This document shows positions 14,924-38,734 of a DNA stretch of 64,000 nucleotides, piece by piece (position 1 is the first letter of the stretch; each line of letters opens with the position of its first letter). The notes beneath the pieces were generated by a model, which was given only the letters and a program-made list of their open reading frames with translations, was not told the origin of the DNA and did not search any database. Location: positions 12,224 to 76,223 of the forward strand of contig DAOI01000024.1 in the NCBI GenBank assembly GCA_002501805.1, in the 5' to 3' direction. A program made the translations under genes and the position numbers. This DNA is from Euryarchaeota archaeon UBA463. GTDB lineage: Archaea > Thermoplasmatota > Poseidoniia > Poseidoniales > Thalassarchaeaceae.

Positions 14924-15017
14924 GTACTCCCGGAGCACTCACAATAGTAGAAGGTTCGCTCGTCGCCGTAGGCGACTCGACCGACGGTTTCTTTTGAGTG
15001 GCTCCTCTCGGAGTGAC

Positions 15018-16247: not shown

Positions 16248-18600
16248 GATATTGCTTTCCCAAATTGGGTGGCTACTATTGGTCACAGGCATAGCTTACT
16301 CAATTCTCCAGTCTACTAGCAGAGCCAAGTCATCTAGCCCATTATCAAGGGATCTCGCACTTATTTCACAAGTATCGCCTTTCCTATTACTCACATTCTG
16401 CTTTGTCACTGATGTGAAATCACTTGAGTTGATTTTCAGATTCGGAGGAGAAGACCTTCCACTATTCTACAGAATATCCGCAGTCTGGAGTAGCAGGTCA
16501 GGCCCCCTCCTACTCTGGGCCGCCCTAATGGCAATAGTAACCAGAATTATGTCTGTTAGAGCGAACGGTACACCCCTAGAAGTCAGAATAATGCATACCT
16601 GGGTAGGTTTCATCCTCCTATTGTCCCTAATGCTCGGACCCTTCGATGAAACAACCTCTACTTCCGCATCGGGACTAAACCCTCTTCTTCAAACCGATCT
16701 AATGGTCATCCACCCTCCCGTAGTCTTCGCATTCTACTCTCTATGCATAGCAACCTCAAGCGTAGTCATCGCAGGGATCCTCAGAAGAGACTCCCCGATT
16801 GCTATCCATAAATCACAACTGTATTGGGCCAGGGCCGGTTTCGTGGTTGGAACGATAGGAATAGGGCTCGGCGGACTCTGGGCTTACACTGTTCTGGATT
16901 GGGGGGGATATTGGGCTTGGGACCCAGTGGAAACCGGCTCACTACTCCCTTGGTTATGCTTGCTACTCGTTGTACACGCTCGCTCCAAAACAGGTGGCAG
17001 TGCAGTCATCGCTTCACCTGCTGTTGGATTACTTGCAGGTGCACTAACATTCCATGCTACTCTAGTTACTAGGGCCAATGGCGTCTGGGCATCTGTCCAT
17101 GCCTTTGTAGCGGATGGGGAGGGGGCCCTTCCTCAGGACCCATATCTGAGGGTTCTAGATGTCGTAGAGTTTGACGCCGTAGGAGCAGAATTAGTTGGAT
17201 ACTTGTCAGCAATAATTCTTCTGTGTGTTTTCGCAGTAATTCATCTGGCTAGAGTCCAAAGGTCAGACTTAGATTCTCAAAACTCAAGGTCCATGATTCA
17301 GGAAAATAAAAATCTCGCAATGTCTCTTGTAGTAATTTTCTTAGTAGCCTCTTTTTGGATAGGTTCAGTCGCAGTCATTCTATTGGGAATGTCACTGATG
17401 TACCTTATAGTAAATGGTAATAATTCAGATCCACCTCTTCATTGGATATTCACGGGAATAGCTCTGATGTTATTTTCTAGTTGGACATGGAATGCAGAAT
17501 GGTACCAGTCTCTGTTTGGGATGACCCCATTCCTCATTCCATGGTTAATGTCAGAGAAGGAAGATGACTGGTCTTTCATTACTGGATTGTTTACCAGTAC
17601 CTCTTCTAGACTAAGGATTTCTAAGGCAATACCATGGTACGGGGGAGCTGGATTTCTATTGCTGACATGGATGATACTTACTGTTGAGATTGATGGCACT
17701 AGTCTGCAGGCTCACGAATTTTATGGGTCCCCCTTCATTGCTCTTCTGGCAATCGGCCTAGCTGCGTATACATGGGGCAAATCAATAAGCCACAAAACAG
17801 GAACATTCCTGATCCTATTTGCCATAATATGCTCTGTTCTAGCCGCTCTCTTGGCAGATTCTATAGCACTACCGGGAGATCCAAGACTTCCAATATCATC
17901 TTCGGTATCTAGGGGATCTCTTGCCTCCTTCATGCTGGTCCTCCTAATCTTCTCTCTACCATTCAACATCAGGAATTTACTACTGACATTGAAGTCCAAT
18001 GCGAGCAAGATCTACCAAGGAGGTTTTATGAGACTAAAATCTCCAAGGGTAAGGCTACTAGCAAGCCATATCTCTCATGTTGGAATCCTACTGCTACTCA
18101 TAGGGCACGTTTTTACCACTACACTGGTGGATAGATCAGATCCTTCTCACTTGGTTACTTTGGAGAAGAACGAGCCGGTATCATATGGGAGCTACGAGTA
18201 TGTGTTGATAGATACAATAGTACTCTCTGAGGGAGATGAAGATTTTGACTTTAAGGTCGGCGATGGCTTCCTAGGAGTGGTCATTGAAATGAGAAAAGAC
18301 GGAGAGCTTGTTGATACTCTGGTCCCAGGCATACTAAGATTCGGCCCAGTTCCTAGATCAGAGGTGGATAGACACGTAGGACTATTCGGCGATACTATTC
18401 TCATAATGGATGGTTTCCAAGTACAAGATCTAATGCCAGCACTATTCTTCAACCAGACCGATGGCCTCGATAGAGTAAGAGTGACAATCCATGAACTTCA
18501 GGGTAGCCACTTAGTTTGGACTGGATGGGTACTCACAATTGTCGGAGGAATTCTGGCGTTTTCATCATCTGAAAAACCCTCCAAAGAAGAGGAAGAATGA
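16213..18600 (+). CDS. ccmF: Cytochrome c-type biogenesis heme lyase, CcmF/NrfE family
   Basis: A polytopic membrane protein with the WWD heme-handling motif WGGYWAWDPVETGSLLPWL. At 795 aa it is longer than typical CcmF. The start is uncertain: TTG 16213 overlaps the GGR end, and an in-frame TTG lies near 16249. Confidence 0.75.
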   Translation: MVTVGQSTTVGEILLSQIGWLLLVTGIAYSILQSTSRAKSSSPLSRDLALISQVSPFLLLTFCFVTDVKSLELIFRFGGEDLPLFYRISAVWSSRSGPLLLWAALMAIVTRIMSVRANGTPLEVRIMHTWVGFILLLSLMLGPFDETTSTSASGLNPLLQTDLMVIHPPVVFAFYSLCIATSSVVIAGILRRDSPIAIHKSQLYWARAGFVVGTIGIGLGGLWAYTVLDWGGYWAWDPVETGSLLPWLCLLLVVHARSKTGGSAVIASPAVGLLAGALTFHATLVTRANGVWASVHAFVADGEGALPQDPYLRVLDVVEFDAVGAELVGYLSAIILLCVFAVIHLARVQRSDLDSQNSRSMIQENKNLAMSLVVIFLVASFWIGSVAVILLGMSLMYLIVNGNNSDPPLHWIFTGIALMLFSSWTWNAEWYQSLFGMTPFLIPWLMSEKEDDWSFITGLFTSTSSRLRISKAIPWYGGAGFLLLTWMILTVEIDGTSLQAHEFYGSPFIALLAIGLAAYTWGKSISHKTGTFLILFAIICSVLAALLADSIALPGDPRLPISSSVSRGSLASFMLVLLIFSLPFNIRNLLLTLKSNASKIYQGGFMRLKSPRVRLLASHISHVGILLLLIGHVFTTTLVDRSDPSHLVTLEKNEPVSYGSYEYVLIDTIVLSEGDEDFDFKVGDGFLGVVIEMRKDGELVDTLVPGILRFGPVPRSEVDRHVGLFGDTILIMDGFQVQDLMPALFFNQTDGLDRVRVTIHELQGSHLVWTGWVLTIVGGILAFSSSEKPSKEEEE

Positions 18601-18677
18601 ATCCTCGCCCAAGTATTCGGCACCGTTTGAATGAAAAAGGGGAAGCGGGTCGGCCGGACGCCAAGGAGGCGAATCAC

Positions 18678-19373
18678 ATGGACAATGGTGCAATAGTACA
18701 CATCGACTACGACCTTTACGAGGTCGACTCTGAGAGACTCATCGAGACTACACGCGAGGACGTAGCCAAGGAGCATGACCTATTCGATGAAAATAGGGAA
18801 TACTCTCCAATGATTACCGTCGTAGGAGACGGGAGACTGATAGCAGGGTTTGAAGCATCTCTCTCAGATGCTGAAGCCGACAAAGACTACGAAATAGACA
18901 TAGAGGCCCCCGATGCATACGGTGAGAGGGATGCCAGTCTCGTCGAAACAATCGGGCAGAATGTTCTGATGAGGAGCGTCAGGGACCCCAATATGCTAGC
19001 AATCGGCGCTCCAGTGGAGATTGGAGGAAGGACCGGCGTGCTACAGTTCTTGAGTGCCGGTCGTGCCAGAATTGACTACAACCACCCATTAGCCGGATCA
19101 ACACTCAGGTACAACTACAATATTGTCAAGGTCGTTGAAGACCGCAAGGAAAAGGTTGAGACACTCCTCAAAATGAACACCGGTAGAGATGACTTCGAGA
19201 TTGACTTCGAGAAAGACGATCTTACTGTAACACTTCCAGATACAATTGCATATGACCAAAACTGGTCATACGCTAAGTTCAGCCTTGTGAGAACACTCAG
19301 GGATCATATCGGAGTGGGGACAATCGTCTTCCGAGAGGTCCATGAGCCCAGAGCAGTCTCTGAAGAGGAGTAA
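18678..19373 (+). CDS. FKBP-type peptidyl-prolyl cis-trans isomerase (archaeal long/SlyD-like)
   Basis: GAIVHIDYDLY...GFEASLSDAE...DAYGERD...YNHPLAGSTLRYNYNIVKV matches the FKBP with IF-insert pattern. ATG 18678 is preceded by AAGGAGG 8 nt upstream. The ORF track start at 18597 is the alternative. Confidence 0.8.
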   Translation: MDNGAIVHIDYDLYEVDSERLIETTREDVAKEHDLFDENREYSPMITVVGDGRLIAGFEASLSDAEADKDYEIDIEAPDAYGERDASLVETIGQNVLMRSVRDPNMLAIGAPVEIGGRTGVLQFLSAGRARIDYNHPLAGSTLRYNYNIVKVVEDRKEKVETLLKMNTGRDDFEIDFEKDDLTVTLPDTIAYDQNWSYAKFSLVRTLRDHIGVGTIVFREVHEPRAVSEEE

Positions 19374-19548
19374 TTCATCTCTAATAGCCCTATTTCAGTG
19401 GGTGGAACATTCATCACCCCGGGCCCCTCCCTCCAACTGCCTCAATGACGACGAAGGTGGACTGAGCTACGGCCTTGACGTTCCCTATGAGTACCGAGAG
19501 GCACCATTTTACACACGTATTCAAGACATACGCCCTCTTCCGAATACT

Positions 19549-20214
19549 GTGAACAGGGCCGTATCATCAATTTCTCTGTCCCTGTTGCTGCTACTCAGTA
19601 TAGCCTCTAGCGGTTGTATGGGACTCGCAATGCAGAGGGAGTTAATGGAGGGAATGAGAGACGATCCCCGTGAGGAAATTGTACCCGTTGAACCCATTGT
19701 ACAAGCTCACATTTTCGCGCAGAACGAGTGTATATTGCCCGAAATCGACAGCTACAGTCAAGAGACAGACTGCTACTCTAACGAGAGTGTGATATTAGTC
19801 GATGAGACAGTTTCCAAGATGCTACTAGACTTCTCAGTGTCCTTCGAGTGGTCTTCAACTGTCGGAGAATTTCTTGGAAATAATACAGATGAACTCAGAT
19901 TCGTTGAGATTACTCTATTGAAACCAAATGGTGACAATTGCTGGGAGTATCTTGCAACCAGCTCAGTGGGCCAGATGTCCCTGGAGCTTAGGAGTGAGAG
20001 TGACTGCACTATTTCCATTGGAAACTCTTCTGGTTTTACGAATGGAAATTGGGTTCTCCAAGTTAGGGCCAGGGGATATGCGTTATCCGCTCCCATCGAC
20101 ACACTCTCGTTTGAAGACGAGTTCAGAGTTTCACTTTGGGTTACCAAGAAGTGCATTGTCTTCCCAGAAATACACGCAGAAGGCGAGTGTACATTTAGCT
20201 CAGAGCTCGAATAA
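19549..20214 (+). CDS. Hypothetical Cys-rich secreted or lipid-anchored protein
   Basis: The ORF is open from 19342. In-frame GTG 19549 gives M-NRAVSSISLSLLLLLSIASSGC, a signal or weak lipobox-like N-terminus. The mature part has 8 Cys. No known domain. The start is uncertain. Confidence 0.4.
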   Translation: MNRAVSSISLSLLLLLSIASSGCMGLAMQRELMEGMRDDPREEIVPVEPIVQAHIFAQNECILPEIDSYSQETDCYSNESVILVDETVSKMLLDFSVSFEWSSTVGEFLGNNTDELRFVEITLLKPNGDNCWEYLATSSVGQMSLELRSESDCTISIGNSSGFTNGNWVLQVRARGYALSAPIDTLSFEDEFRVSLWVTKKCIVFPEIHAEGECTFSSELE

Positions 20215-26674: not shown

Positions 26675-29362
26675 ATGAATTTATTCAGTCCGCATCTCCC
26701 ATGGTTAGCTATGCCACGACGCGGGGCCATCTCGGTGATTGTGATATTCTTACTTCTATCATCTGCCTCTCAGATGGCAATAGCCAACAGTGGTGGAAAG
26801 TATAACTCTTCAAATGGATGTGGTTGTCATGGGGGTTCTGCGGCCTCTCCAACACCAACTCACAACTTTCCTACTACTTACTCGCCCGGACAGAGCTATT
26901 CATTGAATATAGGGATGAATGGGGGCGTATCTGGCTCCAAGGGAGGATTCAACTTACAGGTGTCCGATGGAACCCTAGCTACTGGGTTTGGAATTATGAA
27001 CACACAAGTCAACTCTGCAGGAAACCAAGCAACTCACCAATTCCCAGACTACAGAAGCTGGTCTTTGGACTGGACCGCTCCATCGGCTGGCTCTGGTACT
27101 GTTACATTCTCGCTCGCGGTGATGGCCGCAAATGGCAATGGAAATAATGCCGGAGATGGGTGGGCAACTCTAACTCATCAGTCAAGTGAGGACTCTGGCT
27201 CCACAAACACCCCCCCTACGGCATCATCAGTGAGCTATGTTCCATCCTCTCCAACTAAGGAGACTGGACTGGGAGTCAGCTACACATACTACGACGAGGA
27301 CGGTGATTTCGAGCAAGGCACATCTATCCACTGGTTCAGGGATGGTCTCAGAGTTACTCAGATTGATGATCTAACTGATATCCCCAATTCTTGGATTTCC
27401 AAAGATCAGAGCTGGAGAGTAGAGGTTACTCCCAATGATGGAAATGAATTTGGAGATACGGTTTCCTTAGATCCTATCTCAATAGGAAATACTGCACCGA
27501 TTGCCAGAGACTTGTCAATAGGTCCAGAATCTCCAATGGATGATGACGACCTCATATTGAACTGGGAGTACTATGACCTTGATGGAGATCCACAAGATGA
27601 CCAACAGACTACAATTTACTGGTTCCTAGATGGCTCTAGAGTCCCGGAGTTAGACGGAGAAGAAGCAGTCTCCAGCTTTATGATTAGGTCGGGTGATGAA
27701 TGGGAGGTTTCTATCACTCCTCATGATTCCTCGGACTTCGGACTAACAGTTTACAGTGGGATAGTTGTAATAGGATCTTCCAATACGGGGCCCTCAGTTT
27801 CTGCATTCATCTCCACTACTGGAAATACTGTAACTACCGACTCCTTACAACTAATTTACACCCCCTACGATCCTGATGGGGATACAATCCAGTCTACAGA
27901 AATTCGATGGTTCAGAGATTCTGCCATGGTGGCAGCATTCAATGACGAGACAGTGGTTGACCCATCCTTCACCTCCAAGGGAGAAACGTGGGAGTCCCAT
28001 GTTCGAGTATTCGATGGCCTAGTCTGGTCTGAGTGGTTCGTAACAGATTCTGTAATTATTGTTAATACCCCTCCAGTTGTCACCAATATCTCACTCTTGC
28101 CACATGGAAAACTGACAACTGACTCTGATCTGTATGTGGAATGGGAGCAATTTGATATCGACGGGGATTTGGAGCAAGCCAGTCAAATTAGATGGTGGGT
28201 TGATGGTGAGTGGATCACTGACTATGATGGCCTTTACTCAATACCATCCTCTGAGGTGGATAGAGATGAACACTGGTCAGTACAAGTCATCCCAGGAGAT
28301 GGAGAGGGCCTCGGGACCTCAATGAAGACCAACTCGAGAGTAGTTGAAAATGCTCGACCAATAATCCTAGAAGTTACTCTGGAGAACTCACCAATTGGGG
28401 ATATGGTAACCTCTCCAGACTCTTTGAATGATCTGCTGGCAATTACCATAACTAGGGATCCCGACAATGAACCTGTCGAACTCGACTACTCATGGTTCAG
28501 GGATGGTTTCATCGTTTCTGATCTAGGTGGAAACGATACTGTAAACTCGAACAGACTAGAGCCAGGACAACTTTGGGAAGTGGTAGTAACTGCGACAGAT
28601 CCATGGGGGCTGGGTACTAATTCCTCAGCTTCAGTAACAATAGCAAACCTACCTCCGGTCCCACTCTGGTCCGTAACTCCATCTCCTCCAATATCTGGGT
28701 CTGTAGCTACCTTTGATGCAACCAGCTCCTTTGATCTAGATGGAGAAGTTTCATCCTATCTGTGGATAATAGACGGTGTTGAGGTATCTGGAAGTTCTAT
28801 TGATGTCATTATGGGGCCGGGACCTCACTCTATCTCGCTGACTGTAACTGACAATATGCAGGAAGTCCAATCATCGACTTCGAGCATTGTCTATGACGAA
28901 CCGCAGACTCCTCTATCCCTTGTAGCAACTCTGGATGGAGATCAAGTGAACCTAGTTTGGGCTGGTTCATCAGATGAATATAGGATTTACAGATCTACTA
29001 CGCCGATATCTTCAGTAGTTGGACTAACGATGTTCGATGAGATTCCAGTGTGGGGTGAACCAATACCCACTCCATTGACCCCTGTCGGCTCTACTACATA
29101 TCAGGAATGGAGCGAACCCGTCCCTGTTGCTACTACACTGTACTATGTCGTGACATCAGTAGTTGAAAACCAAGAGGTAGTTTGGATTGTCGATGGACAG
29201 AATCACATCAGTGTAGATGCGACTTCCATTGCTTCAGCCACACAAGAATCAACTGAGGAAGTGTCCCCTACCATATCGTTAGCAATATCCGGATTAATGG
29301 CCACTCTGGGTGTTCTATCTCTGATATTTGCTCTCACAGAGGCAAGGAGGAAATCAGAATGA
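26675..29362 (+). CDS. Large secreted surface protein: N-terminal CGCHG module, five tandem repeats of about 96 aa, PKD-like and FN3-like domains, C-terminal TM anchor
   Basis: Has a signal peptide (RRGAISVIVIFLLLSSASQMAIA), the NGCGCHG motif, five repeats (aa about 180-660), a PKD-like segment (VATFDATSSFDLDGEVSSYLWIIDG) and a C-terminal TM helix followed by ARRKSE. An alternative start is ATG 26711. Confidence 0.7.
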   Translation: MNLFSPHLPWLAMPRRGAISVIVIFLLLSSASQMAIANSGGKYNSSNGCGCHGGSAASPTPTHNFPTTYSPGQSYSLNIGMNGGVSGSKGGFNLQVSDGTLATGFGIMNTQVNSAGNQATHQFPDYRSWSLDWTAPSAGSGTVTFSLAVMAANGNGNNAGDGWATLTHQSSEDSGSTNTPPTASSVSYVPSSPTKETGLGVSYTYYDEDGDFEQGTSIHWFRDGLRVTQIDDLTDIPNSWISKDQSWRVEVTPNDGNEFGDTVSLDPISIGNTAPIARDLSIGPESPMDDDDLILNWEYYDLDGDPQDDQQTTIYWFLDGSRVPELDGEEAVSSFMIRSGDEWEVSITPHDSSDFGLTVYSGIVVIGSSNTGPSVSAFISTTGNTVTTDSLQLIYTPYDPDGDTIQSTEIRWFRDSAMVAAFNDETVVDPSFTSKGETWESHVRVFDGLVWSEWFVTDSVIIVNTPPVVTNISLLPHGKLTTDSDLYVEWEQFDIDGDLEQASQIRWWVDGEWITDYDGLYSIPSSEVDRDEHWSVQVIPGDGEGLGTSMKTNSRVVENARPIILEVTLENSPIGDMVTSPDSLNDLLAITITRDPDNEPVELDYSWFRDGFIVSDLGGNDTVNSNRLEPGQLWEVVVTATDPWGLGTNSSASVTIANLPPVPLWSVTPSPPISGSVATFDATSSFDLDGEVSSYLWIIDGVEVSGSSIDVIMGPGPHSISLTVTDNMQEVQSSTSSIVYDEPQTPLSLVATLDGDQVNLVWAGSSDEYRIYRSTTPISSVVGLTMFDEIPVWGEPIPTPLTPVGSTTYQEWSEPVPVATTLYYVVTSVVENQEVVWIVDGQNHISVDATSIASATQESTEEVSPTISLAISGLMATLGVLSLIFALTEARRKSE
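27212..28654 (+). repeat. Five tandem in-frame coding repeats (about 288 bp / 96 aa each) inside the surface protein gene
   Basis: Each unit carries [YW]-x-x-[YF]-D-x-DGD ... [IY]-x-W-[FW]-x-DG ... W-x-V-x-[VI]-x-P-x-DG ... N-x-x-P. Examples are YTYYDEDGD/IHWFRDG/WRVEVTPNDG, WEYYDLDGD/IYWFLDG/WEVSITPHD, YTPYDPDGD/IRWFRDS, WEQFDIDGD/IRWWVDG/WSVQVIPGDG and YSWFRDG/WEVVVTATD. The copies have diverged at the DNA level. Confidence 0.8.
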
Positions 29363-30432
29363 AAAGGAACGCAGTCGTGGTGCTTATTTGTATCACACTG
29401 ATTCTAGCCCCGGGTAGCTCTGTTGCAAACCCAGGAGGAAACGGCGATGGTAATAGGGACTACTCTTGCGGAGGATCCTGTCATGGCGATCCTGCACTAA
29501 GTATGCCATCAGATGCAACCATTGAGATCACACTCGGGAATGAGGCATTTTCAGGACAGGCTGTCGCCATTCATGTTACAATAGACGGTATCAGTACCCC
29601 CAGCCAGATAGTTGGAATATTCATCCTAGGTTCCCTGAATGGAAATTCAGATACTCCAGAAGACCATGGTTGGCATTTGATTCAAGATCCTAACGGGGGC
29701 TCATCCAACTATATCGAGACGAAGGTATCTCCCTCTGGCTCAGTTACAGTAACGTGGGTTTTACTTTCGCCTGAGAGTTCTGGCATCCATACCCTGTATG
29801 CAGAGATCCACCATGGTTCTTATGCGGGGGACAAGGCATTCTCGGGTGTTAGTGAACCGTTTGAGGTTAATGTCCAAGACGTCCCTGAAGGCCTTCCTGG
29901 TCTAGCCGATGACTGGGTTGCTCCCTCATTCAGAGTCTCCGGGGATAGCAGTCCATTGTCCATCAGCACTAGGAACTCGACTGACATAACTGTGGAATGG
30001 ATGCTTGACGGAGAGTGGAACCCTACTACTGCAGAGTTGGTTTGTAAAGAAGACTCAGAAGATGTATGTAATGACTGGGAAGTAAGTATTCCTGCTACTA
30101 TGGGTGAGGCAAATATCCTGTACAGAGTAACAACGTTCAATGGAACCTTCTCCATAGAACAGCCCTGGCTGAAGATGGGAACCGCCCCCCCTCCATTCGA
30201 GGGCGAGGTGTGGTCAGCCAGAGCACACTCTTTCGCCTTCGCGTTATTGATAATTTCATTTTTAGTCACTCTACAAGCTCGGCTATATCCTCCTAATCAG
30301 AGAGATGATATGGACCAGACTCAGATAGTGGCCTCATCAGAGATGATCAGGTCTGAGGAGAACCCTGGATGGCTGTGGAATCCGGATACTCAGGAGTGGG
30401 TAGAAGATCCAGATTATGAAGGGGGCAACTAA
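29359..30432 (+). CDS. Secreted, C-terminally anchored protein with a paralogous N-terminal SCGGSCHG module
   Basis: Its start overlaps the upstream stop as ATGA. It has a signal peptide (VVVLICITLILAPGSSVA), then NPGGNGDGNRDYSCGGSCHG, a beta-rich body, a TM helix (FAFALLIISFLVTL) and an acidic tail. Confidence 0.6.
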   Translation: MKRNAVVVLICITLILAPGSSVANPGGNGDGNRDYSCGGSCHGDPALSMPSDATIEITLGNEAFSGQAVAIHVTIDGISTPSQIVGIFILGSLNGNSDTPEDHGWHLIQDPNGGSSNYIETKVSPSGSVTVTWVLLSPESSGIHTLYAEIHHGSYAGDKAFSGVSEPFEVNVQDVPEGLPGLADDWVAPSFRVSGDSSPLSISTRNSTDITVEWMLDGEWNPTTAELVCKEDSEDVCNDWEVSIPATMGEANILYRVTTFNGTFSIEQPWLKMGTAPPPFEGEVWSARAHSFAFALLIISFLVTLQARLYPPNQRDDMDQTQIVASSEMIRSEENPGWLWNPDTQEWVEDPDYEGGN

Positions 30433-31025
30433 TGATGGTAGGTGCTGCAACATTCCACACTGCCATGGCAGAGATTGTAGTTGGCTCCATGGTTCTGGCC
30501 ACTCTATGCGCCATAGGTTGCTCAATATCTCGAATACTCCCCTCCTCAGAAATCAATAATGAATCTCTGATGGTTACGATGGACAGAGCATCCCTAGCTG
30601 GCTCTGCTTTGGCTCTAATTTTCCTCCCGATAGCCATTCTCAGTGGAAATGTTGCGGCCGATGGTCAAGCAGAAAGTGCACTTCTGTACAATAAGTTCGT
30701 CTACAGCGGGCTTGCTCTGGGCTTCTGGAGCGCTTTCGTCATTGGAAGAATCAGGATGGGCCCGGGGTTGTGGGAAGAGAGGCCTCTGGCGATTCTTCAG
30801 TCCACCACAGCAGGTTTTGCATTTCTGATGACTTCCATGGCATCATCTATCGGAGGTAAACTAGTCAGAGGAGAGTCACTGTTCGACGTCTTCCCTTTCT
30901 GGCTCCCTACTGAAACCGCTGCGATACTGCCACTTTGGGCGTCTGCGTCCTTGTTAATCCTAGGAATAACATCCTCAGCACTGGTTTTTAGATTCACTCT
31001 ACCGAAGATTGCTAGGATAGAATAA
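30432..31025 (+). CDS. Hypothetical integral membrane protein (about 5 TM helices)
   Basis: Its start overlaps the upstream stop as TAATG. Hydrophobic segments run throughout, there is a single His near the N-terminus (FHTAMAE), and no family is recognised. Confidence 0.55.
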   Translation: MMVGAATFHTAMAEIVVGSMVLATLCAIGCSISRILPSSEINNESLMVTMDRASLAGSALALIFLPIAILSGNVAADGQAESALLYNKFVYSGLALGFWSAFVIGRIRMGPGLWEERPLAILQSTTAGFAFLMTSMASSIGGKLVRGESLFDVFPFWLPTETAAILPLWASASLLILGITSSALVFRFTLPKIARIE

Positions 31026-31027
31026 TA

Positions 31028-32263
31028 TTATTCTAGATTCAGGAATATCTCCTCAAGTCTAGTGGAAAAAACCTCAGGATTTAACCCCATCTTGGAAATG
31101 CTTGCTCTTCCGTTCTCTGACCATAAGGAGCGATTGTGAGTGTCTTTGGCCTCTTCAAGAGCCGCATGCCATGCTGAGTAGTCATCTCTGGGAAGAAGCC
31201 TCCCTGAAACCCCATCCGTAATTGTCTCCCTGAATCCGCCCTCATCCACGAAAAGAGCAGGCGTACCTAGGGACTGGGCCTCTATTGGAGTAAGTCCGAA
31301 AGGTTCTGAATGGGCCATACTGACTACCGCAACTGCCCCTCTAATAAGACTACAAAGTTCGGTCGACTCAAGTCTCGGAGCTACCCAAATCTCGACCTTA
31401 CTCGATTTCGCATGTTCAATCAATGCATCAATTGACTCCTCTTCACCTCCTCCTACCAGTGCAAGGGACAAACCACTATCTGTCAGCATGGAAATCGTCT
31501 CCCAAGTTCCTTTCACCCAACTCGCTCTTCCTATGGTTACTACATACGGCCCCTCGATTCCAACCAAGGGAGACGCCTCAGAACTTGGAGATTCAGAGGG
31601 AAACTCTTCGGGATCTAAACTAGGAGGCAACACCCCCGACGGAATTCCATATACATCACCGATTCTCGAGGATGTGAACTTTGAATTCCCACTGATTGCA
31701 GTCCTATCCCTAGATGAAAGCATCCTGATCTTAGACAGGTCCTTTCTTCTAGCCATACTCAAAGCCACCCTAGTCAAGCTGAGGTTACGTCTAGGGGATC
31801 CATCTATCATCCGATGTAAGACATCCTCATGAAGGCCTCGATGCGGTTCAAGAAGGTGTAAATGCAAAGAAATACCATCAGGAATGATTTCCAACATGGA
31901 TAGGCTCCCATCACCACTGGTCAGGTGAATATATTCCAAATCGACAAAACTCTCAACTAGTCCTACGACTGATTTCCAACTCTGCAAAGAACTGGAGAAT
32001 TCTTTATTCAATATCCTAGATACAGCCTCTCGGGGAGGCTTCCAATAAATATCCGGCTTCATTAGTTTAATATCATATTCTTCACAAATCGAGTCGAGCT
32101 GTAGAGCACTGTCAAGAGTGGCCACAGAAACCTCGAATTTCTTTGATAGAGCAGGAAGGTTTCTGATAATATCCCTTTCAGCCCCTCCCATTGCGGAGAA
32201 GCTACCCTTGGCAACGAGTAATCTGGCTCGGACCCTACCCGCTCCCTCGCCATTACGCGCCAT
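31028..32263 (-). CDS. Glycosyltransferase, GT4 (GT-B fold) family
   Basis: The C-terminal motif EPFGLTPIEAQSLGTPALFVDEGGFRETI is typical of GT4 (E-x7-E region). Confidence 0.8.
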   Translation of the reverse strand: MARNGEGAGRVRARLLVAKGSFSAMGGAERDIIRNLPALSKKFEVSVATLDSALQLDSICEEYDIKLMKPDIYWKPPREAVSRILNKEFSSSLQSWKSVVGLVESFVDLEYIHLTSGDGSLSMLEIIPDGISLHLHLLEPHRGLHEDVLHRMIDGSPRRNLSLTRVALSMARRKDLSKIRMLSSRDRTAISGNSKFTSSRIGDVYGIPSGVLPPSLDPEEFPSESPSSEASPLVGIEGPYVVTIGRASWVKGTWETISMLTDSGLSLALVGGGEEESIDALIEHAKSSKVEIWVAPRLESTELCSLIRGAVAVVSMAHSEPFGLTPIEAQSLGTPALFVDEGGFRETITDGVSGRLLPRDDYSAWHAALEEAKDTHNRSLWSENGRASISKMGLNPEVFSTRLEEIFLNLE

Positions 32264-32307
32264 GAACCTCCATCCTCCGTCCTCGTTTAAGTCCGATACG
32301 CCTTGGT

Positions 32308-33396
32308 GTGGCCATGGTGAGCAGAGTTCTGCTAGTCAGAGGGGGGCGCCTCGCTGAGAACTCGGGCTTAGGTAGAGCTCATCAGGCGATCGAGTCATTA
32401 TTGGAAAAGGCGCTTGTACCGCAGTGGACTAAAGTCGGAACTATCGAGCACGAACAAGTAACCGGACTTGTTCAAAGAGCAGTAAAGAGATGGTATACTC
32501 ATCCTAGGTCAGTGACAAAATTATCAGAATCCACGCCTGCAGATATTATTCACATTACTGACCAGGAACAGGCCCATCTGGTTCCCAAGAACTGTCCAGT
32601 ACCGGTAATAGTCACAGTTCACGACCTCTTCCATATTAGCCCCAGAAAGATAATCGGGGGAGATGTTACTGTATCAGTCGGAGAACAAAATCCAGGCCTT
32701 TTCAGAAGAAGAGACTTGAAGATGCTGAAGAAGGGCCTAGAGAGGGCGGATATGATAATTTGCATCTCTGAAAGTACTCTAATGGATGTCAGGAGGATGT
32801 TTCCTGGAAAGAAAACGGCTCTTGTAAGACACCAGATAGACACAGAATATTGGAGCCCGTTCTCAAATCCCAAACCACGGGAGCTTCTAGGGGAATTCGA
32901 TAGTGAATCCAAGATGTTGGTAGTAACCTTGGGAAGTAATGAAGAGAGGAAAAGGCTAAATTTCGCTAAAAAGGTGATTTCTTCATTACCCGATGAGGTT
33001 TCAAAAGATATCAATACGATTCACATCGGAAGCGAGGTCAAGCTTACCGATGAACAATTACTGGCCGCCTTACAGAGCGCGGAGGTCCTACTCTTCCCCA
33101 GTGCTAGTGAAGGATTCGGATACCCCCCGGCTGAGGCAATGGCCGCCGGTTGTCCTGTCATAGCATCAGATCTTCCGGCTCATAATGAGATAATTCCCAG
33201 CAGGTGCCTTCTTCCCGCTACCTCTACTCAGGATTGGGTGGATGAGATAGTACGAATCCACTCTGAGTGGAGAGCCGCGGGACAGGTTCCCAGACATCCC
33301 TCAGAGGAATTGATGAATCACATAGAGGACCTCCTAAGTCCAAAATCTCAAGGCGCCTCACTCGCTGAAGCATACAGCGATGCACTAAATAAATGA
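32308..33396 (+). CDS. Glycosyltransferase, GT4 (GT-B fold) family
   Basis: Has the EGFGYPPAEAMAAGCPVIASDLPAHNEII motif. It is divergent from the other GT4 gene. GTG 32308 or ATG 32314. Confidence 0.8.
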   Translation: MAMVSRVLLVRGGRLAENSGLGRAHQAIESLLEKALVPQWTKVGTIEHEQVTGLVQRAVKRWYTHPRSVTKLSESTPADIIHITDQEQAHLVPKNCPVPVIVTVHDLFHISPRKIIGGDVTVSVGEQNPGLFRRRDLKMLKKGLERADMIICISESTLMDVRRMFPGKKTALVRHQIDTEYWSPFSNPKPRELLGEFDSESKMLVVTLGSNEERKRLNFAKKVISSLPDEVSKDINTIHIGSEVKLTDEQLLAALQSAEVLLFPSASEGFGYPPAEAMAAGCPVIASDLPAHNEIIPSRCLLPATSTQDWVDEIVRIHSEWRAAGQVPRHPSEELMNHIEDLLSPKSQGASLAEAYSDALNK

Positions 33397-33460
33397 CTAA
33401 CTGGAATAGCTTGGTGCACGGACAACCACTGATTATAAACTCGCCAATTCTCGATAGTAC

Positions 33461-34165
33461 ATGCTGGAGGTCAATGGGCTAAAGAAGGGCTTCGGCTCTG
33501 GCAGGAGGAGACTTGAGGTCCTGAAGGGGATAGACCTCAAAATAGAATCCGGAGAGCTCGTAGCTCTTATGGGACCTTCCGGATGTGGAAAGTCCACTCT
33601 GTTGAATATCATAGGTGGCCTTTTGGAGGCCGATTCAGGTTCCATTTCCCTTACTGAGTTCGAGTATGGTACTTATCCTCCGAGCAGAGTCGTGGATGTT
33701 AGGAGGAAAGGAGTGGGATGGATTTTCCAGGACTTCCATCTTGTGGATAGGCTATCTGCCTTGGACAATGTCATTTTCGCACTCGAGCTCTCTGGCGTAC
33801 CGTCCTCTCAAGCAGAGAGTCAGGCAATAGATGCCCTCAGGAAGGTGGGTCTGTCTGATAGGATGAACTTCATCCCCGACCAGCTTTCTGGTGGACAGAG
33901 GCAGAGAGTGGCCATAGCTAGGGCAATTTCTGGCTCCAGACCGCTTATTCTAGCCGACGAGCCAACTGGGAATCTTGATGTCAAGAGCGCTGAGGGGATA
34001 CTCGATCTGTTCAAGGAACTCTGCCAGGACTACGGAATTTCCGTACTAATGGTCACTCACGATCCCAATCTTGCGTCAAAGGCAGATAGGATGCTTCTCC
34101 TGAGGGATGGAGTAACCGCCGCTTCAGACATACGTTCTGCATGGGGAGTAGGGGGCAATCTCTGA
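33461..34165 (+). CDS. ABC transporter ATP-binding protein (MacB/LolD/FtsE-like)
   Basis: Has Walker [10 protein letters not shown], signature [14 protein letters not shown], Walker [13 protein letters not shown] and the H-loop VTHD. Confidence 0.9.
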
Positions 34166-37100
34166 TGGATCTCTACTACCAAGAAAGTCACAGGCCCGCT
34201 AGGCCAATGACATTCGGAGAGGCGACAAAGACATGCCTAGTCAAGTCCGGAGACATGAATGGTAGGGCATCAAGATCCGAATTTTGGAGCTTCTTTCTAT
34301 TCTATGTGCCAATGATGCCAGGTCTTTGGGTCATCGACCTTTTCTTTACTATGGGAATTTATAGCCTATCATCTGAGATAGGAATTGGATTATTAGATAC
34401 ACTATTATTTGTCCCAGCGTCATATCTAGTGGTCTTAATGCAACTTGTCTTCCTCTACAGTTTCACAAGTGCTACTGTACGTCGATTACATGATGTTGGA
34501 AGAACGGGGTGGTGGCTACTTCTAACTCCTACACTTATAGGTCTTCTAGTGATTGGATTTTTCCTGTTCTTGGAGGGCGAGTCCAATAAGAACAAGTATG
34601 GCGCTGTACCTACAAATGACCCCATAGAAGCCTCTATGGCCGAGATTGTATCTGCGATTCCGGATAATTTGCTAATGTCCGCGAGAAGCGCTTGGATTGG
34701 CAGAGAAAGGGTTCTGGCAGTTTTCGCAGGAGTATTCCTAGCTTCACTCGTCATCACAACGGTCCTAGCCTACTCGGCAGGCCTCAGCGGCGCATTCCTG
34801 CAGTTTTCTCTCCAAGAGGAGATATTCGATGGTAAGGTGGACTTCGCAGAAGACCCGGGCTCTGATTCAGAGGGCAGAACGAACGACTCAACATTGTGGG
34901 AGTCAGCTTGCTCTGAGTTGATAGAGATGGAAGAGATTTCCGATTGTGGACTCGTGTTTGGCAGACAGGGAGTCAGGGTCAACGGGTTCTTTGATGAGGG
35001 AGGTATCATTCCACAACCGCTCAATGCTGTGGGTGCAACAGGAACCATTGGGGACTGGACTAATGTCAGTTGGGACTACCCAGAGGCATACGACTCAGGA
35101 CCGCCAATCAATGACAAGAGGACGATCAGATTCTACGGGGATGGGATATGGGACGGAGATTTGGGCGAACGACATGCCAATCGAGTGATATACGGTTCTT
35201 GGCCGGGCTCCGGCGAGGAAGCATCTGCAAATCGCTCGATTATCCTCCCTTCAGAGATCGCCAGTAAGGCAGGGGTAGGTGTCAACGATACCATAGACAC
35301 ACTGACTTTCTCCTACACCTACGATTATCTTGGATTCGCATCCATAGCCACAGGTTTCGATGACTGTCCCGGTGAGGAGTACTTCAACCAAGAATCAGGA
35401 TACCTTTACTGTCAGGTGAACATGACGGTATACGACCTGAAGGTTGTCGCGGTTTACCAAGAAGGAGGAGCGGGAAACCCCACTTTGCTTTTCAACCCAA
35501 TAATGGTATCAGATTCGGTACTTACTGAGAATCAGAAGCTCACTCTGATGAACAATGACCACGGTTATCTCGGTATCGCCATAGATAGAAACGAGCTCCC
35601 AGCGTCTTCCACCAGGGCGGCCACAGATTGGTTGGACGGTCTGAAAGGGGATATCGAAGGAGTAAACTATACATCAGGTAATGACATAATGATTGAGTAC
35701 AATGATTTGATTTCGGGAACGATAGGCTTCCTGAATATTTTCCTCGGGATAATCAGCGTGTTCGATTACATATTGATGATACCGATAGTCGTTCTTTCGT
35801 TCTCGGTCCTAATTTATGGCCTAGTACTATCACTGGAACAGAGGAGACGGGAGATTTCGATTCATAGGGTAATTGGAGGCACGGAGGCTGGTCTGACCTC
35901 AATGATACTCAGGGAACTGGCAGTGGTGGGCGTCATTGGTTGGTTTACAGGCTACCTCTTAGCGATGGCCTCCGTTCCAGTTGTTCTGGATGCTGTCGGA
36001 TTCATGGCATTCGAGAGAAGCGACTTCAGAGTCGTTCCAACTCTGAGCGGCCTCGTTACTCTACTGATATTCTTGGTAACCGTGGGGCTTACCTTACTGT
36101 TCGGAAACTCCCGGACCAAGGACTTCCTCAGCATTGAAATTGATGAGGGAGTCAGGAGAGTCGCTACAAGAAAGAAGTCAAGGCTATGGCTACACCTGAT
36201 AGTATTCTTCGTTGGAATCCTCTCATTCCTCGAGAGTTGGATAGAAAGCAATGGGGGCTTCGGACCAATTGCCTCGAGTGGGATAAGCTCAAACTTCGTC
36301 GTAGACGGACTTTTATTCATCTTTGGTCCATTCTTCCTTTGGATAGGGGGAGCACTAGTACTGGGAAGGATAGGCGCTTCCGGACCAAGGATTTTCACCA
36401 CTCTGTTCGGCTGGAGCCCGGTTCTAACTGACATTAAGAGAGGACTGAAGGGATCTGGATCAAGCGAGTCAGTGAATAGGCTAGCAATAATACTTCTACT
36501 AACACTGTCAATAGTAACAGTGGCCGCTGTACAGGGCTACACTGGGACATTAGTAGATGAGAGGACAACCTCGGCTCAGACAGGTGCAGACCTACAGGTT
36601 CAGTTTGAAGAGCCGGTTTCCCAACAACGTGCAATGGAAGAAGTGACCCTGGCGATCCAGAGGGCTGGAGAGTCCGAGATCGACTCAATAGACTATGTGA
36701 CCTCAGTGGGGGACATATTCACCAATCAGAAAGGGGAAGGCTCTCTACTCAGGACATGGATTCTATTCGACGGGCATGAGAATACTCTCCAATGGGATGA
36801 GCAGACCATCCCAGATGATGATATTGATATTGTATCGGCTCAGTGGTCATCCTTCGGATTTACCGCTGGCTCTTCTGCCAGAAGTCAACTTGATATCTCT
36901 AGAAATGACATAGGCTCCAACACAACCATAGAGTACACATCATACAGTTTCGGCGGTTTAGACAGCGACATGAACCCAATCATCACTACTACTGTTACTG
37001 TGGCAGAAATTACCTACATGGGTGGGCACAGGTGGGTCCCAGGACTACAATCCTCTGAAGCAAATCAGGCAATAGTCATTGGAGAGGCTACCTACAAAGA

Positions 37101-37734
37101 ACTTCTAGGTCAAAACGCAGTAGATTCTTACACGTCCAATCGATGGTTCTTCGAACTTTGTGATGAGACCCAGAAAGACTGTAAGGATGCTTTGAAGACA
37201 CTAGGAGTCGAGGTATCCAATGGTGTTGGAGTGGCATCATCCAGTAACTGGGGAACGAATCATGAGGCCAACGAGAGGACAGGAGGACTAATCTTCGGGA
37301 CCCCAGGTCTTCTGAGTCTACAATTCGTGGTAGCTTCGCTAGCATCAATCGCTTCAGCCTTCGTATTCCTCTCCCTGGTCCTATCGCAAAGGAAGAAAGA
37401 ACTAGCCATCCTTCAGGCAATAGGAGCTAGTCCACAACAGGTAATGAGACTGGTTTTGTTTGAAATCATGTCTATCTTGCTAGTTAGTATGGGACTAGGA
37501 GTAATACTTGGCCTTGCAATATCCGAAGCTTTCAATGGGTTCTTCGGAGTCTTTGGATTCATCTTCCAGATTTTCCTAGGTCAAAGCGCTCCGATAGACA
37601 GAGATTTGGTCTGGCCGTGGACTGAGCTGATACTCGTCAACGCTTCCGTCCTAGTCGCTGTTGTGATAGCATTGCTTTTCACCACAAGGAGGGCGTTGAA
37701 GTCCGATCTTGCCATAGTTCTGAAGGGGGAGTGA
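34165..37734 (+). CDS. Giant ABC permease: N-terminal DUF805 domain fused to two FtsX-type permease modules with large extracytoplasmic domains
   Basis: DUF805 hallmarks are present (GRASRSEFWSFFLF..., VRRLHDVGRTGWWLLL, NKYGAVPTNDP). There are two FtsX-like modules (EISIHRVIGGTEAGLTSMILRE and ELAILQAIGASPQQVMRLVLFE), each preceded by a soluble domain of about 330-400 aa. ATG 34165 overlaps the ATPase stop as TGATG, and ATG 34141 is the alternative. Confidence 0.8.
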   Translation: MDLYYQESHRPARPMTFGEATKTCLVKSGDMNGRASRSEFWSFFLFYVPMMPGLWVIDLFFTMGIYSLSSEIGIGLLDTLLFVPASYLVVLMQLVFLYSFTSATVRRLHDVGRTGWWLLLTPTLIGLLVIGFFLFLEGESNKNKYGAVPTNDPIEASMAEIVSAIPDNLLMSARSAWIGRERVLAVFAGVFLASLVITTVLAYSAGLSGAFLQFSLQEEIFDGKVDFAEDPGSDSEGRTNDSTLWESACSELIEMEEISDCGLVFGRQGVRVNGFFDEGGIIPQPLNAVGATGTIGDWTNVSWDYPEAYDSGPPINDKRTIRFYGDGIWDGDLGERHANRVIYGSWPGSGEEASANRSIILPSEIASKAGVGVNDTIDTLTFSYTYDYLGFASIATGFDDCPGEEYFNQESGYLYCQVNMTVYDLKVVAVYQEGGAGNPTLLFNPIMVSDSVLTENQKLTLMNNDHGYLGIAIDRNELPASSTRAATDWLDGLKGDIEGVNYTSGNDIMIEYNDLISGTIGFLNIFLGIISVFDYILMIPIVVLSFSVLIYGLVLSLEQRRREISIHRVIGGTEAGLTSMILRELAVVGVIGWFTGYLLAMASVPVVLDAVGFMAFERSDFRVVPTLSGLVTLLIFLVTVGLTLLFGNSRTKDFLSIEIDEGVRRVATRKKSRLWLHLIVFFVGILSFLESWIESNGGFGPIASSGISSNFVVDGLLFIFGPFFLWIGGALVLGRIGASGPRIFTTLFGWSPVLTDIKRGLKGSGSSESVNRLAIILLLTLSIVTVAAVQGYTGTLVDERTTSAQTGADLQVQFEEPVSQQRAMEEVTLAIQRAGESEIDSIDYVTSVGDIFTNQKGEGSLLRTWILFDGHENTLQWDEQTIPDDDIDIVSAQWSSFGFTAGSSARSQLDISRNDIGSNTTIEYTSYSFGGLDSDMNPIITTTVTVAEITYMGGHRWVPGLQSSEANQAIVIGEATYKELLGQNAVDSYTSNRWFFELCDETQKDCKDALKTLGVEVSNGVGVASSSNWGTNHEANERTGGLIFGTPGLLSLQFVVASLASIASAFVFLSLVLSQRKKELAILQAIGASPQQVMRLVLFEIMSILLVSMGLGVILGLAISEAFNGFFGVFGFIFQIFLGQSAPIDRDLVWPWTELILVNASVLVAVVIALLFTTRRALKSDLAIVLKGE

Positions 37735-37738
37735 TAGA

Positions 37739-38734
37739 ATGGACGAAAGCTTGGTAATTCTGGAAGCCAAAAATATGTACCATATCTACGAGAGCCTGAG
37801 TCTCGAGGGGAACGTTGTCGCCTTGAGAGGCCTCAATGTCATAATCAAGGAGGGTGAGGCCGTAGCTGTAATCGGGCCCTCGGGATCAGGTAAGTCCACT
37901 CTTCTGAAGTGCCTAGGTGGGCTAATGAAACCATCATCCGGTTCGGTTTCCTTAGGGGGCAGAGAGATGATCAGGATGACTGGTAATGAACTCGTAAAAC
38001 TTCGGCAGGAAACAGTCTCTTTCATCTTCCAAGACTCAAATTTACTTCCTGATCTAAATGCGTTAGATAATGTTGCACAACCACTCAGGCACCAGGGAGT
38101 GATGCCAGGTCCAGCTAGGGCCAAGGCAATGGAGCTACTTGAGAAACTAGCGATGGGAGACAGATGGATGGGAATGCCAGAGCAACTTTCTGGAGGGGAG
38201 CAACAACGAGTAGCTATAGCCAGGGCACTAATAACCAACCCAAAGCTAATTCTGGCGGATGAGCCAACCGGTGCATTGGACCCTATAACTAGCAGAGAGG
38301 TTCTAGAGCTGTTCGAGAGGCTGCATAAGGAAGAGAATGTGGCATTCTTGCTTGTGACTCACAACAGGGACGTAGCATACTTCTGTGAGAGGTCCTTAGA
38401 GCTTAGAGACGGAAGGTTCGTCGCGCAACATGGAACCGATTTCGATATGGCAGATCTCTCAGATACTAGAGAACTGATTATAGATGAAACCGGGACAATA
38501 ACACTACCTCCAGACCTCCTTCTAAAGCTAGGTGGGCCGGGTAGATTCGATGTCCCTGATGCGGACAGAGATTCCCTGAAGCTGGAGAGGGTTGAGGACG
38601 AGAAAATCAAGGTATCATCCAAGACTAAGAGAGTACTAGCACCAACCTGTCCTGCTTGTAATCATGACTACTCAGACTCAACAGATCAACTGTGTCCCGA
38701 ATGTGGTTCCAGTAGGCCCATGATTCAAGCCTGA
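37739..38734 (+). CDS. ABC transporter ATP-binding protein with a C-terminal extension (AbrB/SpoVT-like segment plus zinc ribbon)
   Basis: Has Walker [24 protein letters not shown] and [12 protein letters not shown] tail of about 100 aa contains TGTITLPPDLLLKLGGPGRFDV (AbrB-like looped-hinge pattern) and CPACNH...x12...CPECG (4-Cys ribbon). Confidence 0.85.
   Translation: MDESLVILEAKNMYHIYESLSLEGNVVALRGLNVIIKEGEAVAVIGPSGSGKSTLLKCLGGLMKPSSGSVSLGGREMIRMTGNELVKLRQETVSFIFQDSNLLPDLNALDNVAQPLRHQGVMPGPARAKAMELLEKLAMGDRWMGMPEQLSGGEQQRVAIARALITNPKLILADEPTGALDPITSREVLELFERLHKEENVAFLLVTHNRDVAYFCERSLELRDGRFVAQHGTDFDMADLSDTRELIIDETGTITLPPDLLLKLGGPGRFDVPDADRDSLKLERVEDEKIKVSSKTKRVLAPTCPACNHDYSDSTDQLCPECGSSRPMIQA

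Follow-up and report, generated by a model that had tools for sequence, protein, structure and literature searches.

Introduction

Choice-of-anchor V (NCBIfam NF041895), whose founders are MXYO-CTERM proteins of the MXAN_6652 family, is a named domain that stands at the N-terminus directly after a signal peptide in proteins with C-terminal anchors, and our literature search found no description of its function or cofactor. We report here a three-gene cassette, P1, P2 and P3, that encodes such a domain. It lies in a 64-kb stretch of DNA (hereafter the window; 64,000 nucleotides of contig DAOI01000024.1, assembly GCA_002501805.1) from Euryarchaeota archaeon UBA463, which belongs to Marine Group II (MGII; Poseidoniales, family Thalassarchaeaceae). 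The cassette is a conserved, translationally coupled unit whose first two products carry an N-terminal module with a Cys-Xn-Cys-His motif, and we put at about even the chance that it forms a membrane-anchored extracytoplasmic electron-transfer assembly of MGII and Thermoplasmatota relatives, probably with covalent haem.

P1 is a member of NF041895, as is a P2-like protein of a distant euryarchaeote (locus L095); P2 of the window gave no match, and the P3 operon and the redox fusions described below lie outside the family definition. The Reeler domain (Pfam PF02014; F-spondin structures 3COO and 2ZOU) shares with the archaeal domain its beta-sandwich topology and the HG, GF.L, TH, W.AP and V.F positions. 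In eukaryotic Reeler domains a single N-terminal Cys pairs with a mid-domain Cys, whereas the archaeal domain, with its C-Xn-C-H, lacks a Cys in mid-domain (P1 has none outside CGCH). P2-type modules differ further in an extra insert, DGW.I.DP.G..NY.E, and in a late H-G histidine that is placed elsewhere. Eukaryotic ferric reductases of the CYBDOM type (reeler-DOMON-cytochrome b561; SDR2/FRRS1, Drosophila CG8399) have the same domain order as two archaeal relatives of the cassette proteins, P0283 and P0300. The cassette itself departs from that order, with neither DOMON nor b561 in P1, P2 or P3 (Pfam and NCBIfam scans) and with P3 in the membrane position, and the eukaryotic reeler domain lacks C-Xn-C-H. 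No published report of a prokaryotic fusion of reeler-like, DOMON and b561 domains was found in the literature search.

Cytochrome f is a beta-sandwich c-type cytochrome with its haem motif near the mature N-terminus, a second small beta domain and one C-terminal transmembrane (TM) anchor, which is also the layout predicted for P2; its motif, however, is the canonical CXXCH and it belongs to b6f, whereas P2 does not lie beside Rieske or cytochrome b genes. The CbsA/CbsB pair of Sulfolobus (cytochrome b558/566), an extracellular mono-haem protein with a hydrophobic membrane partner, offers an analogy to P2/P3. Neither cytochrome f nor CbsA/CbsB was found to match P2 in sequence or fold. NrfD is the usual docking place of periplasmic electron carriers, and in relatives of the cassette the module is fused to, or encoded directly upstream of, subunits of this NrfD/PsrC type (complex iron–sulphur molybdoenzyme, CISM, and NrfCD-like systems); the MGII cassette, in contrast, has no NrfD, 4Fe-4S or molybdopterin gene in it or beside it. 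Variant haem c motifs include CX3CH and CX4CH in cytochromes c3, CX15CH in MccA and the single-Cys A/FXXCH of Euglenozoa. The present superfamily resembles them in its fixed Cys-His and its variable or absent upstream Cys; those variants are rare exceptions in helical cytochromes, whereas the present sequences vary as a rule, with n=1 prevailing in one branch, and are built on a beta-sandwich.

That the P1 domain belongs to a named family is already known, and its Reeler link is recoverable with existing models. We found no published descriptions of the P2 branch or of the trio as a conserved unit, of a P2/P3 pair outside MGII, of a C-Xn-C-H signature with variable spacing, of archaeal fusions of the module with DOMON-b561 or with NrfD, or of the linkage to cytochrome c maturation (Ccm) genes. 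Literature searches on DUF2231, a family considered below for P3, and on reeler together with haem, DOMON or archaea likewise found no functional description.

Structure and conservation of the cassette

The three genes and their junctions, the latter read directly in the sequence, are as follows.

26675–29362, + strand: P1, open reading frame (ORF) of 895 amino acids (aa); surface protein
29359–30432, + strand: P2, ORF of 357 aa; type-I membrane protein
30432–31025, + strand: P3, ORF of 197 aa; polytopic membrane protein
29359–29362, + strand: ATGA start/stop overlap of P1 and P2
30430–30434, + strand: TAATG stop/start overlap of P2 and P3

A first reading of this DNA made without database searches (the sequence-only reading) had described three co-directional genes with ATGA and TAATG overlaps, and its positions were exact. 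An AGGAGG lies 8 nucleotides (nt) upstream of the P2 start, and the 4-nt P1/P2 overlap recurs in loci L001–L003, L096 and L097. The nearest public relative by P2 was 'Euryarchaeota archaeon UBA62' (97 % over P2). Across 80 species-level MGII genomes, P2 was present in 79, a P1-like ORF lay directly 5' of P2 in 75 (most of the others being cut by a contig end), and a P3-like ORF lay directly 3' of P2 in 76 loci, within 4 nt of the P2 stop in 68 of the 76. The trio with coupled junctions was kept in about 75 of the 80 genomes, extending the three-gene synteny to related archaea. In MGIIa (Ca. Poseidonia alphae) the trio and both 4-nt overlaps stood amid wholly different neighbouring genes, and locus L007 kept the trio with a different downstream flank; in MGIIb the genes flanking the trio were conserved too. 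Because MGIIa and L007 keep the trio in differing flanks, its conservation is not mere general MGII synteny, and the linkage is at the operon level: the trio is a conserved translationally coupled unit.

Downstream of the cassette, at 31028–38734, there are two GT4 glycosyltransferase genes and a set encoding an ABC-ATPase, a giant FtsX-permease and another ABC-ATPase. These genes are syntenic in MGIIb and not in MGIIa.

The N-terminal modules of P1 and P2

The features of P1 are listed first.

26786–27199, + strand: N-terminal module (residues ~38–175), choice-of-anchor V with Reeler-like beta-sandwich (NF041895, PF02014, AlphaFold2, Foldseek)
26819–26830, + strand: Cys49-Gly-Cys51-His52 motif, with the only two cysteines of P1
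27035–27037, + strand: His121 (A-T-H), which corresponds to the 'TH' of Reeler; candidate for a second axial ligand or a metal ligand
27242–28669, + strand: stalk of five ~95-aa repeats (regex positions)
29261–29335, + strand: C-terminal TM anchor and short basic tail (hydropathy, residues 863–887), kept in orthologues

P1 runs from a signal peptide through the Cys/His module, the five repeats, a PKD-like domain and an FN3-like region to the C-terminal TM anchor, and orthologue N-termini indicate that its true start is probably Met13 (nt 26711). Before the motif comes a hydrophobic, signal-like stretch that ends in A-N-S-G-G. Orthologues at 45–50 % identity have, like P1, two cysteines only, both in the motif. 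Residues 25–167 matched NF041895 with 96.5 bits (E-value 1.5e-27, cut-off 42), and the name choice-of-anchor V is already on some Thalassarchaeaceae fragments in public annotation. The sequence-only reading, which could assign the cassette to no described system, had missed this curated name; the resemblance to Reeler that it had pointed out was borne out. Scanned alone, the P1 module gave a marginal match to PF02014 (21.5 bits, E-value 3.7e-4, gathering score 21) that begins at the motif His; the full-length P1 scan did not report this model, and 38 of 78 P1-module relatives matched it. The AlphaFold2 (AF2) model of the module, built from a 78-sequence alignment, had a predicted local distance difference test score (pLDDT) of 84.8 and a predicted template modelling score (pTM) of 0.82. 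Its top three Foldseek matches in the PDB were the F-spondin reeler structures 3coo_B, 2zou_A and 2zou_B (E-values 1.3e-5 to 1e-4, TM-score about 0.55, 20–21 % identity). His121 is invariant in alignment A1 and at least 90 % conserved in alignment A4, which holds 78 choice-of-anchor V (P1-type) relatives.

The stalk repeats (residues ~190–665) carry the signature DxDGD ... W[FW]xDG ... W.V.V.P.DG, and no Pfam model scored above threshold against them. From their sequence they may be an Ig-like, Ca-binding repeat of MGII surface proteins that has not been described before.

P2 has the following features.

29428–29883, + strand: N-terminal module (residues ~24–175), divergent member of the choice-of-anchor V/Reeler-like superfamily
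29467–29484, + strand: Cys37-Gly-Gly-Ser-Cys41-His42 motif, invariant in alignment A2
29812–29814, + strand: His152 (H-H-G), invariant in A2; candidate distal ligand
30208–30285, + strand: TM helix (AF2 helix 284–309; hydropathy)
30286–30429, + strand: cytoplasmic tail with a conserved PGWLW-PxxxEWVxDP motif (A2)

A signal peptide, the Cys/His module, a second beta-sandwich, the TM helix and the conserved cytoplasmic tail follow one another in P2, and the AF2 model (pLDDT 79.7) placed the sandwiches at residues 48–173 and 190–276. The motif again follows a hydrophobic signal-like segment, here ending A-N-P-G-G. In 34 aligned P2 orthologues (A2) ANPGG, RD, CGGSCHGDP and His152-Gly were invariant and cysteines outside the motif were not conserved; the MGIIa P2 has no Cys beyond the motif. 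The late His of P2 was at least 90 % conserved in alignment A6. The Trp-rich tail, PGWLW(D/N)PxxxEWVxDP, is conserved across MGIIb orthologues and absent from the MGIIa (Ca. Poseidonia alphae) orthologue.

P2 had no match in Pfam or NCBIfam, with none to NF041895 at E-values up to 1 and none to PF02014. Direct similarity between P1 and P2 was weak (BLASTP, 29 % over 79 aa), and hhalign aligned the P2 module to choice-of-anchor V co-linearly over 113 columns with a probability of 40 %. An exhaustive profile search with the P2 family recovered 214 relatives, some of which NF041895 also scored, in the range of 30–52 bits (P0334 with 41.3 bits, P0322 with 40.4 and P0283 with 34.6), and the P2-like protein of L095 reached 52 bits, above the cut-off of 42. 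Since proteins found with the P2 profile are recognised by NF041895, the P2 module is a divergent branch of the P1-module superfamily. The two modules, which the sequence-only reading had called paralogous, are thus joined through intermediates, with little to link them in direct comparison. Searching the PDB with the full-length P2 model was uninformative, returning antibody and Ig chains only (TM-score about 0.2). The P2 and P3 profiles found nothing credible among PDB sequences, and their matches to ClpP and to designed repeats were set aside as spurious.

P3 and its relatives

30456–30458, + strand: His9 in the first TM segment, the only invariant histidine of P3

P3 has about five TM segments, and its invariant residues include His9, Asp51, YNKF, GR.R.G...W and SIGGK. 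Three of six P3 orthologues matched DUF2231 (PF09990) weakly, with 18.5, 16.5 and 9.5 bits against a gathering score of 26.4 (best E-value 0.002); these sub-threshold matches span nearly the whole profile. Neither the window P3 nor its homologue in L095 matched DUF2231. The L095 protein was identified as a P3 homologue by hhalign (probability 98.9 %, E-value 2e-17), and because this euryarchaeote carries a pair of P2-like protein and P3 homologue, the P2/P3 pair is older than MGII. The sequence-only reading had described P3 as a 5-TM protein of no recognisable family; the TM count stands, and the rest is qualified by the faint DUF2231 similarity and by a clear homologue outside MGII.

Conservation of the Cys-Xn-Cys-His motif

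The motifs CGCH (nt 26819–26830) and CGGSCH (nt 29467–29484) lie where the sequence-only reading had placed them, and their retention in orthologues shows that they are no accident. C-x-C-H was invariant in the 78 aligned choice-of-anchor V relatives (A4), 67 MGII P1 orthologues carried C[TSNG]CH, and CGGSCHGD was found in 78 of 79 MGII P2 orthologues. Across the superfamily the Cys-His pair is fixed, while the upstream Cys lies one to five residues away, canonical CXXCH included, or is absent. Among P1-type sequences the spacing was n=1 in 97, n=2 in three and n=4 in seven; among P2-type sequences it was n=3 in 81, n=1 in nine, n=2 in nine, n=4 in seven and n=5 in three. Relatives such as P0310, P0285, P0284 and P0135 have a canonical CXXCH in this place, and a few P2-type sequences lack the first Cys (GAPTCH, GAASCH), giving AxxCH-like single-Cys forms. 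The motif segment is the sole low-confidence region in both AF2 models (P1 module and P2), as expected for a segment that is ordered by a ligand. Genome-mining pipelines already count CXCH and CXXXCH as possible haem motifs (PMC11218250).

The choice-of-anchor V profile also matched cytochromes c555/c552 among PDB sequences. The match extends over no more than a short GC(x)xCH stretch, with a triple repeat inflating its E-value; we rejected it as homology, and by sequence it is a motif resemblance. In seven relatives (P0345, P0361, P0294, P0324, P0330, P0336 and P0350) the motif is reduced to C-[ST]-x-H, and all scanned members of this subgroup have long Big_7 arrays; two of its clusters are named Methanomassiliicoccales, and some members have Tyr where the late His would be.

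Fusions and neighbourhoods of the module in relatives

Relatives of the module were found joined to redox proteins in several arrangements. P0283 and P0300 each consist of the module, FN3, DOMON and cytochrome b561 (DOMON E-values 2.3e-27 and 1.9e-24, b561 E-values 2.7e-5 and 5.4e-6, respectively). The sequence-only reading had remarked that the Reeler fold is coupled to DOMON and cytochrome b561 in eukaryotes, which proved predictive for these two archaeal proteins. By analogy with the eukaryotic enzymes, their domain order implies a transmembrane electron path ending at the module. Archaeal-type module-FN3-DOMON-cytochrome b561 proteins were seen at L009 (4329–7103) and in P0300.

The module was also linked to NrfD. 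P0318 is a fusion of module, Ig-like domain and NrfD, encoded by the third (NrfD) gene of an operon ordered molybdopterin oxidoreductase, 4Fe-4S subunit, NrfD and NarJ-like chaperone, and a module-Ig-NrfD fusion is likewise the third gene of a molybdopterin/4Fe-4S operon at L095 (13367–15616). For both P0310 and P0257 the coupled partner is an NrfD-4Fe4S fusion, next to multihaem cytochromes. In L011, paralogous module proteins with CDNCH and CGCH motifs occupy identical gene contexts, each translationally coupled to an NrfD-4Fe4S fusion with multihaem cytochromes alongside. The region L011:457–14493 is a tandem duplication of a unit of three genes, which encode a PKD-containing multihaem cytochrome c, a module protein and an NrfD-4Fe4S fusion.

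L095, from Euryarchaeota archaeon RBG_19FT_COMBO_56_21, brought several of these elements together within 16 kb: ccmA (above the TIGR01189 cut-off), ccmB, a ccmC-like gene and a nine-haem cytochrome, the P2-like protein (CSTGCH) coupled to the P3 homologue, and the molybdoenzyme operon that ends in the module-Ig-NrfD fusion. No P3 neighbour was found beside module proteins fused to NrfD or b561. Judged from domain order and gene neighbourhood, the module is repeatedly in the place expected of an extracytoplasmic electron carrier.

Haem maturation and the context of the window

16213–18600, + strand: CcmF-like haem lyase homologue outside the cassette, about 8 kb upstream of it; WWD motif at nt 16900–16953

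This ORF passed PF01578 (E-value 4.6e-22, 79 bits against 29.9) and carries WGGYWAWDPVETGSLLPW, with the WWD motif intact, as well as the motifs IHPP and SVHAF, which we take to be the periplasmic His sites of bacterial CcmF. Against TIGR00353 it scored 134.9 bits (E-value 4e-39, cut-off 569), covering the N-terminal half of the model only. Its description as CcmF-type in the sequence-only reading is upheld by PF01578 and the WWD motif, and falls short of the curated CcmF model. That reading had also seen no canonical CXXCH in any ORF, and this holds for all window ORFs of at least 120 aa. The CcmF-like gene is coupled to genes for an FKBP isomerase and for a protein of the geranylgeranyl-reductase family, and adjoins futalosine-type menaquinone genes. 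MGII reportedly possesses cytochrome b, cytochrome c oxidase and a Rieske protein, and lacks a canonical bc1 (no cytochrome c1) (PMC6336850), and a survey of archaeal cytochromes c does not mention MGII (PMC4429474).

The region 12126–19373 as a whole is a respiratory-cofactor cluster, with an MqnP-like prenyltransferase and an SCO4490-type menaquinone decarboxylase on the – strand and, divergently on the + strand, an overlapping run of the geranylgeranyl-reductase-family gene, the CcmF-like gene and the FKBP-type isomerase. At 19342–20214 (+ strand) an ORF of 290 aa contains eight cysteines, and neither Pfam nor NCBIfam matched it; since it runs into the region annotated as the start of the ORF for ribosomal protein S2, it may or may not be a real gene.

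Discussion

From the gene structure, fold family, motif and operon conservation, fusions and neighbourhoods of relatives set out above, we infer a redox function, haem as the cofactor, a direction of electron flow and the partners involved. That the module is a redox (electron-transfer) module we rate as somewhat better than an even bet on the sequence evidence, and that its cofactor is covalently attached haem c as close to even, if anything slightly under. In the proposed mechanism, P1 and P2, predicted from their N-terminal signal-like segments and C-terminal TM anchors to be exported to the extracytoplasmic side, would each present a Reeler-like sandwich right after the signal peptide, with C-Xn-C-H on its N-terminal strand. 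The motif would bind one haem covalently by thioether bonds, its His serving as proximal ligand and the later conserved His (His121 in P1, His152 in P2) as the putative distal one, and attachment would be carried out by the CcmF-type system of the genome. The single TM helix of P2 would keep its module near the membrane, with P3 as the polytopic membrane partner standing in for the fused NrfD or DOMON-b561 domain of relatives, and P1 would display a second copy of the module at the tip of a long Ig-like stalk.

The haem-site reading is strengthened because the Cys spacing varies while Cys-His stays fixed, because relatives are linked to ccmABC and multihaem cytochromes, and because the CcmF-like gene of the window is intact (WWD, IHPP, SVHAF). 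It also gains from the P2-type subgroup without the second Cys (D-C-S-[AFV]-H): at least two of its clusters are named Methanomassiliicoccales, some copies have Tyr in place of the late His, and genomes of that order mostly lack haem b synthesis genes (PMC8351635). The reported MGII respiratory chain, with cytochrome c oxidase and no cytochrome c1 (PMC6336850), counts on the same side. The sequence-only reading had offered a Reeler fold and a haem site as alternatives; the fold is supported, and the evidence suggests that both can be true together.

Several observations weigh against this electron-transfer reading. Most long relatives carry only Ig-like arrays (Big_7, fn3, PKD, CARDB), as in ordinary surface or adhesin proteins. 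The surroundings of the motif are Gly/Ser-rich and polar, not hydrophobic, the position of the presumed distal His differs between P1-type and P2-type modules, and we know of no established natural haem c attachment site of the form C-x-C-H (n=1), the dominant P1-type form. The CcmF-like ORF is far under the curated CcmF cut-off, and CcmC, CcmE and CcmAB were not found within the window. An electron-transfer role for P3 would be an analogy, given one invariant His and sub-threshold DUF2231 similarity. The same P2-type subgroup keeps the first Cys and has lost the second; natural single-Cys cytochromes c show the reverse pattern, and a metal site would account for the subgroup as readily as haem.

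The main rival, a non-haem metal site in which Cys, Cys, His and the later His would bind Cu, Fe or Zn, either forming a small redox centre or taking up the metal substrate of a reductase or uptake relay, is in our view unlikely. Variable spacing and the loss of either Cys would be more tolerable there than in a haem site with two thioether bonds, the D-C-S-x-H subgroup retains Cys and His without the second Cys, and two conserved His lie at Reeler-equivalent positions. In its relay version the distal P1 module would capture the metal, the membrane-proximal P2 module receive it and P3 act as the membrane component, an arrangement that the pairing of a long-stalk and a short-stalk protein with a membrane protein resembles. 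Such a relay can be likened to the proposed role of Reeler-DOMON-b561 ferric reductases or to the Isd/NEAT relay of Gram-positive bacteria. The archaeal DOMON-b561 fusions mirror eukaryotic ferric reductases, whose reeler domain has no known cofactor (10.1101/2023.09.01.555970). A metal site gives no account, however, of a Cys always directly followed by His, nor of the paralogues with canonical CXXCH that lie beside ccm genes and multihaem cytochromes. Where the module adjoins NrfD and molybdoenzymes, an electron carrier is expected and not a site for a metal substrate, and P3 showed no metal-transporter domain in Pfam and NCBIfam scans. A CuA- or Sco-like CxxxC(H) copper site was rejected as a primary reading, its spacing not being conserved across the family and its fold being different, and is kept within the metal-site alternative.

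That P1 and P2 are ordinary surface or adhesion proteins, with an Ig-like cap whose motif cysteines form a small disulfide loop and with P3 unrelated but co-transcribed, we regard as improbable. The Reeler domain counts as a module for extracellular adhesion, Ig-like repeats with an anchor at the C-terminus make up most of P1, most relatives have Big_7, fn3, PKD or CARDB arrays, glycosyltransferase genes flank the cassette in MGIIb, and the full-length P2 model yielded only generic Ig matches. A disulfide, however, leaves the invariant His and the later conserved His unexplained, single-Cys members would have an unpaired conserved Cys adjoining a conserved His, fusions or couplings to NrfD, FeS and DOMON-b561 proteins arose repeatedly and independently, and the P2–P3 pairing is kept from MGII to a distant euryarchaeote and in unrelated flanks. 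Because single-Cys members exist, the His is conserved and redox fusions recur, a structural disulfide in adhesin-like proteins is the least likely of the haem, metal and disulfide readings. Lastly, that P3 serves specifically to mature or handle the unusual motif and is not an electron-transfer partner, as with the specialised haem lyases that Epsilonproteobacteria encode next to CXXCK or CX15CH cytochromes, seems very improbable, since its strict coupling to P2 in MGII and L095, the invariant His at the start of its first TM segment, the non-canonical motifs of P1 and P2 and a very weak PF01578 match in one orthologue (E-value 1.9) are set against the insignificance of that match, the lack of a WWD-type Trp-rich motif in P3 and the NrfD- or b561-fused module proteins without a P3 neighbour, which suggest that P3 replaces those membrane domains.

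In sum, the cassette is probably an undescribed cell-surface electron-transfer system, and proof of haem attachment could make the module a new class of cytochrome c. A bolder proposal, which we hold tentatively and at rather less than even, is that the module represents a structural class of c-type cytochromes not recognised before, in which a beta-sandwich binds one haem via C-Xn-C-H (n = 1–5, the unprecedented C-x-C-H among them) and is matured by archaeal Ccm. P1, P2 and P3 would then represent the 'missing' MGII cytochrome c and the substrates of an orphan CcmF, and the archaeal module-DOMON-b561 fusions would be the source of eukaryotic reeler-DOMON-b561 ferric reductases.

MGII archaea are uncultured and among the most abundant heterotrophs of the surface ocean. 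Their respiratory chain has been described without a cytochrome c1-type component (PMC6336850), yet the window genome keeps a CcmF-like haem lyase, and a core, order-wide operon with a haem-attachment-like motif on a Reeler-type fold would give candidate substrates for that lyase. It would also add a new scaffold and new motif spacings, missed entirely by CXXCH-based genome mining, to the cytochrome c repertoire, and would offer a first way into the function of choice-of-anchor V in prokaryotes and of Reeler in animal ferric reductases. If the cofactor is a metal and not haem, the cassette would nonetheless represent a new device for redox or metal handling at the cell surface, in a habitat where iron is limiting.

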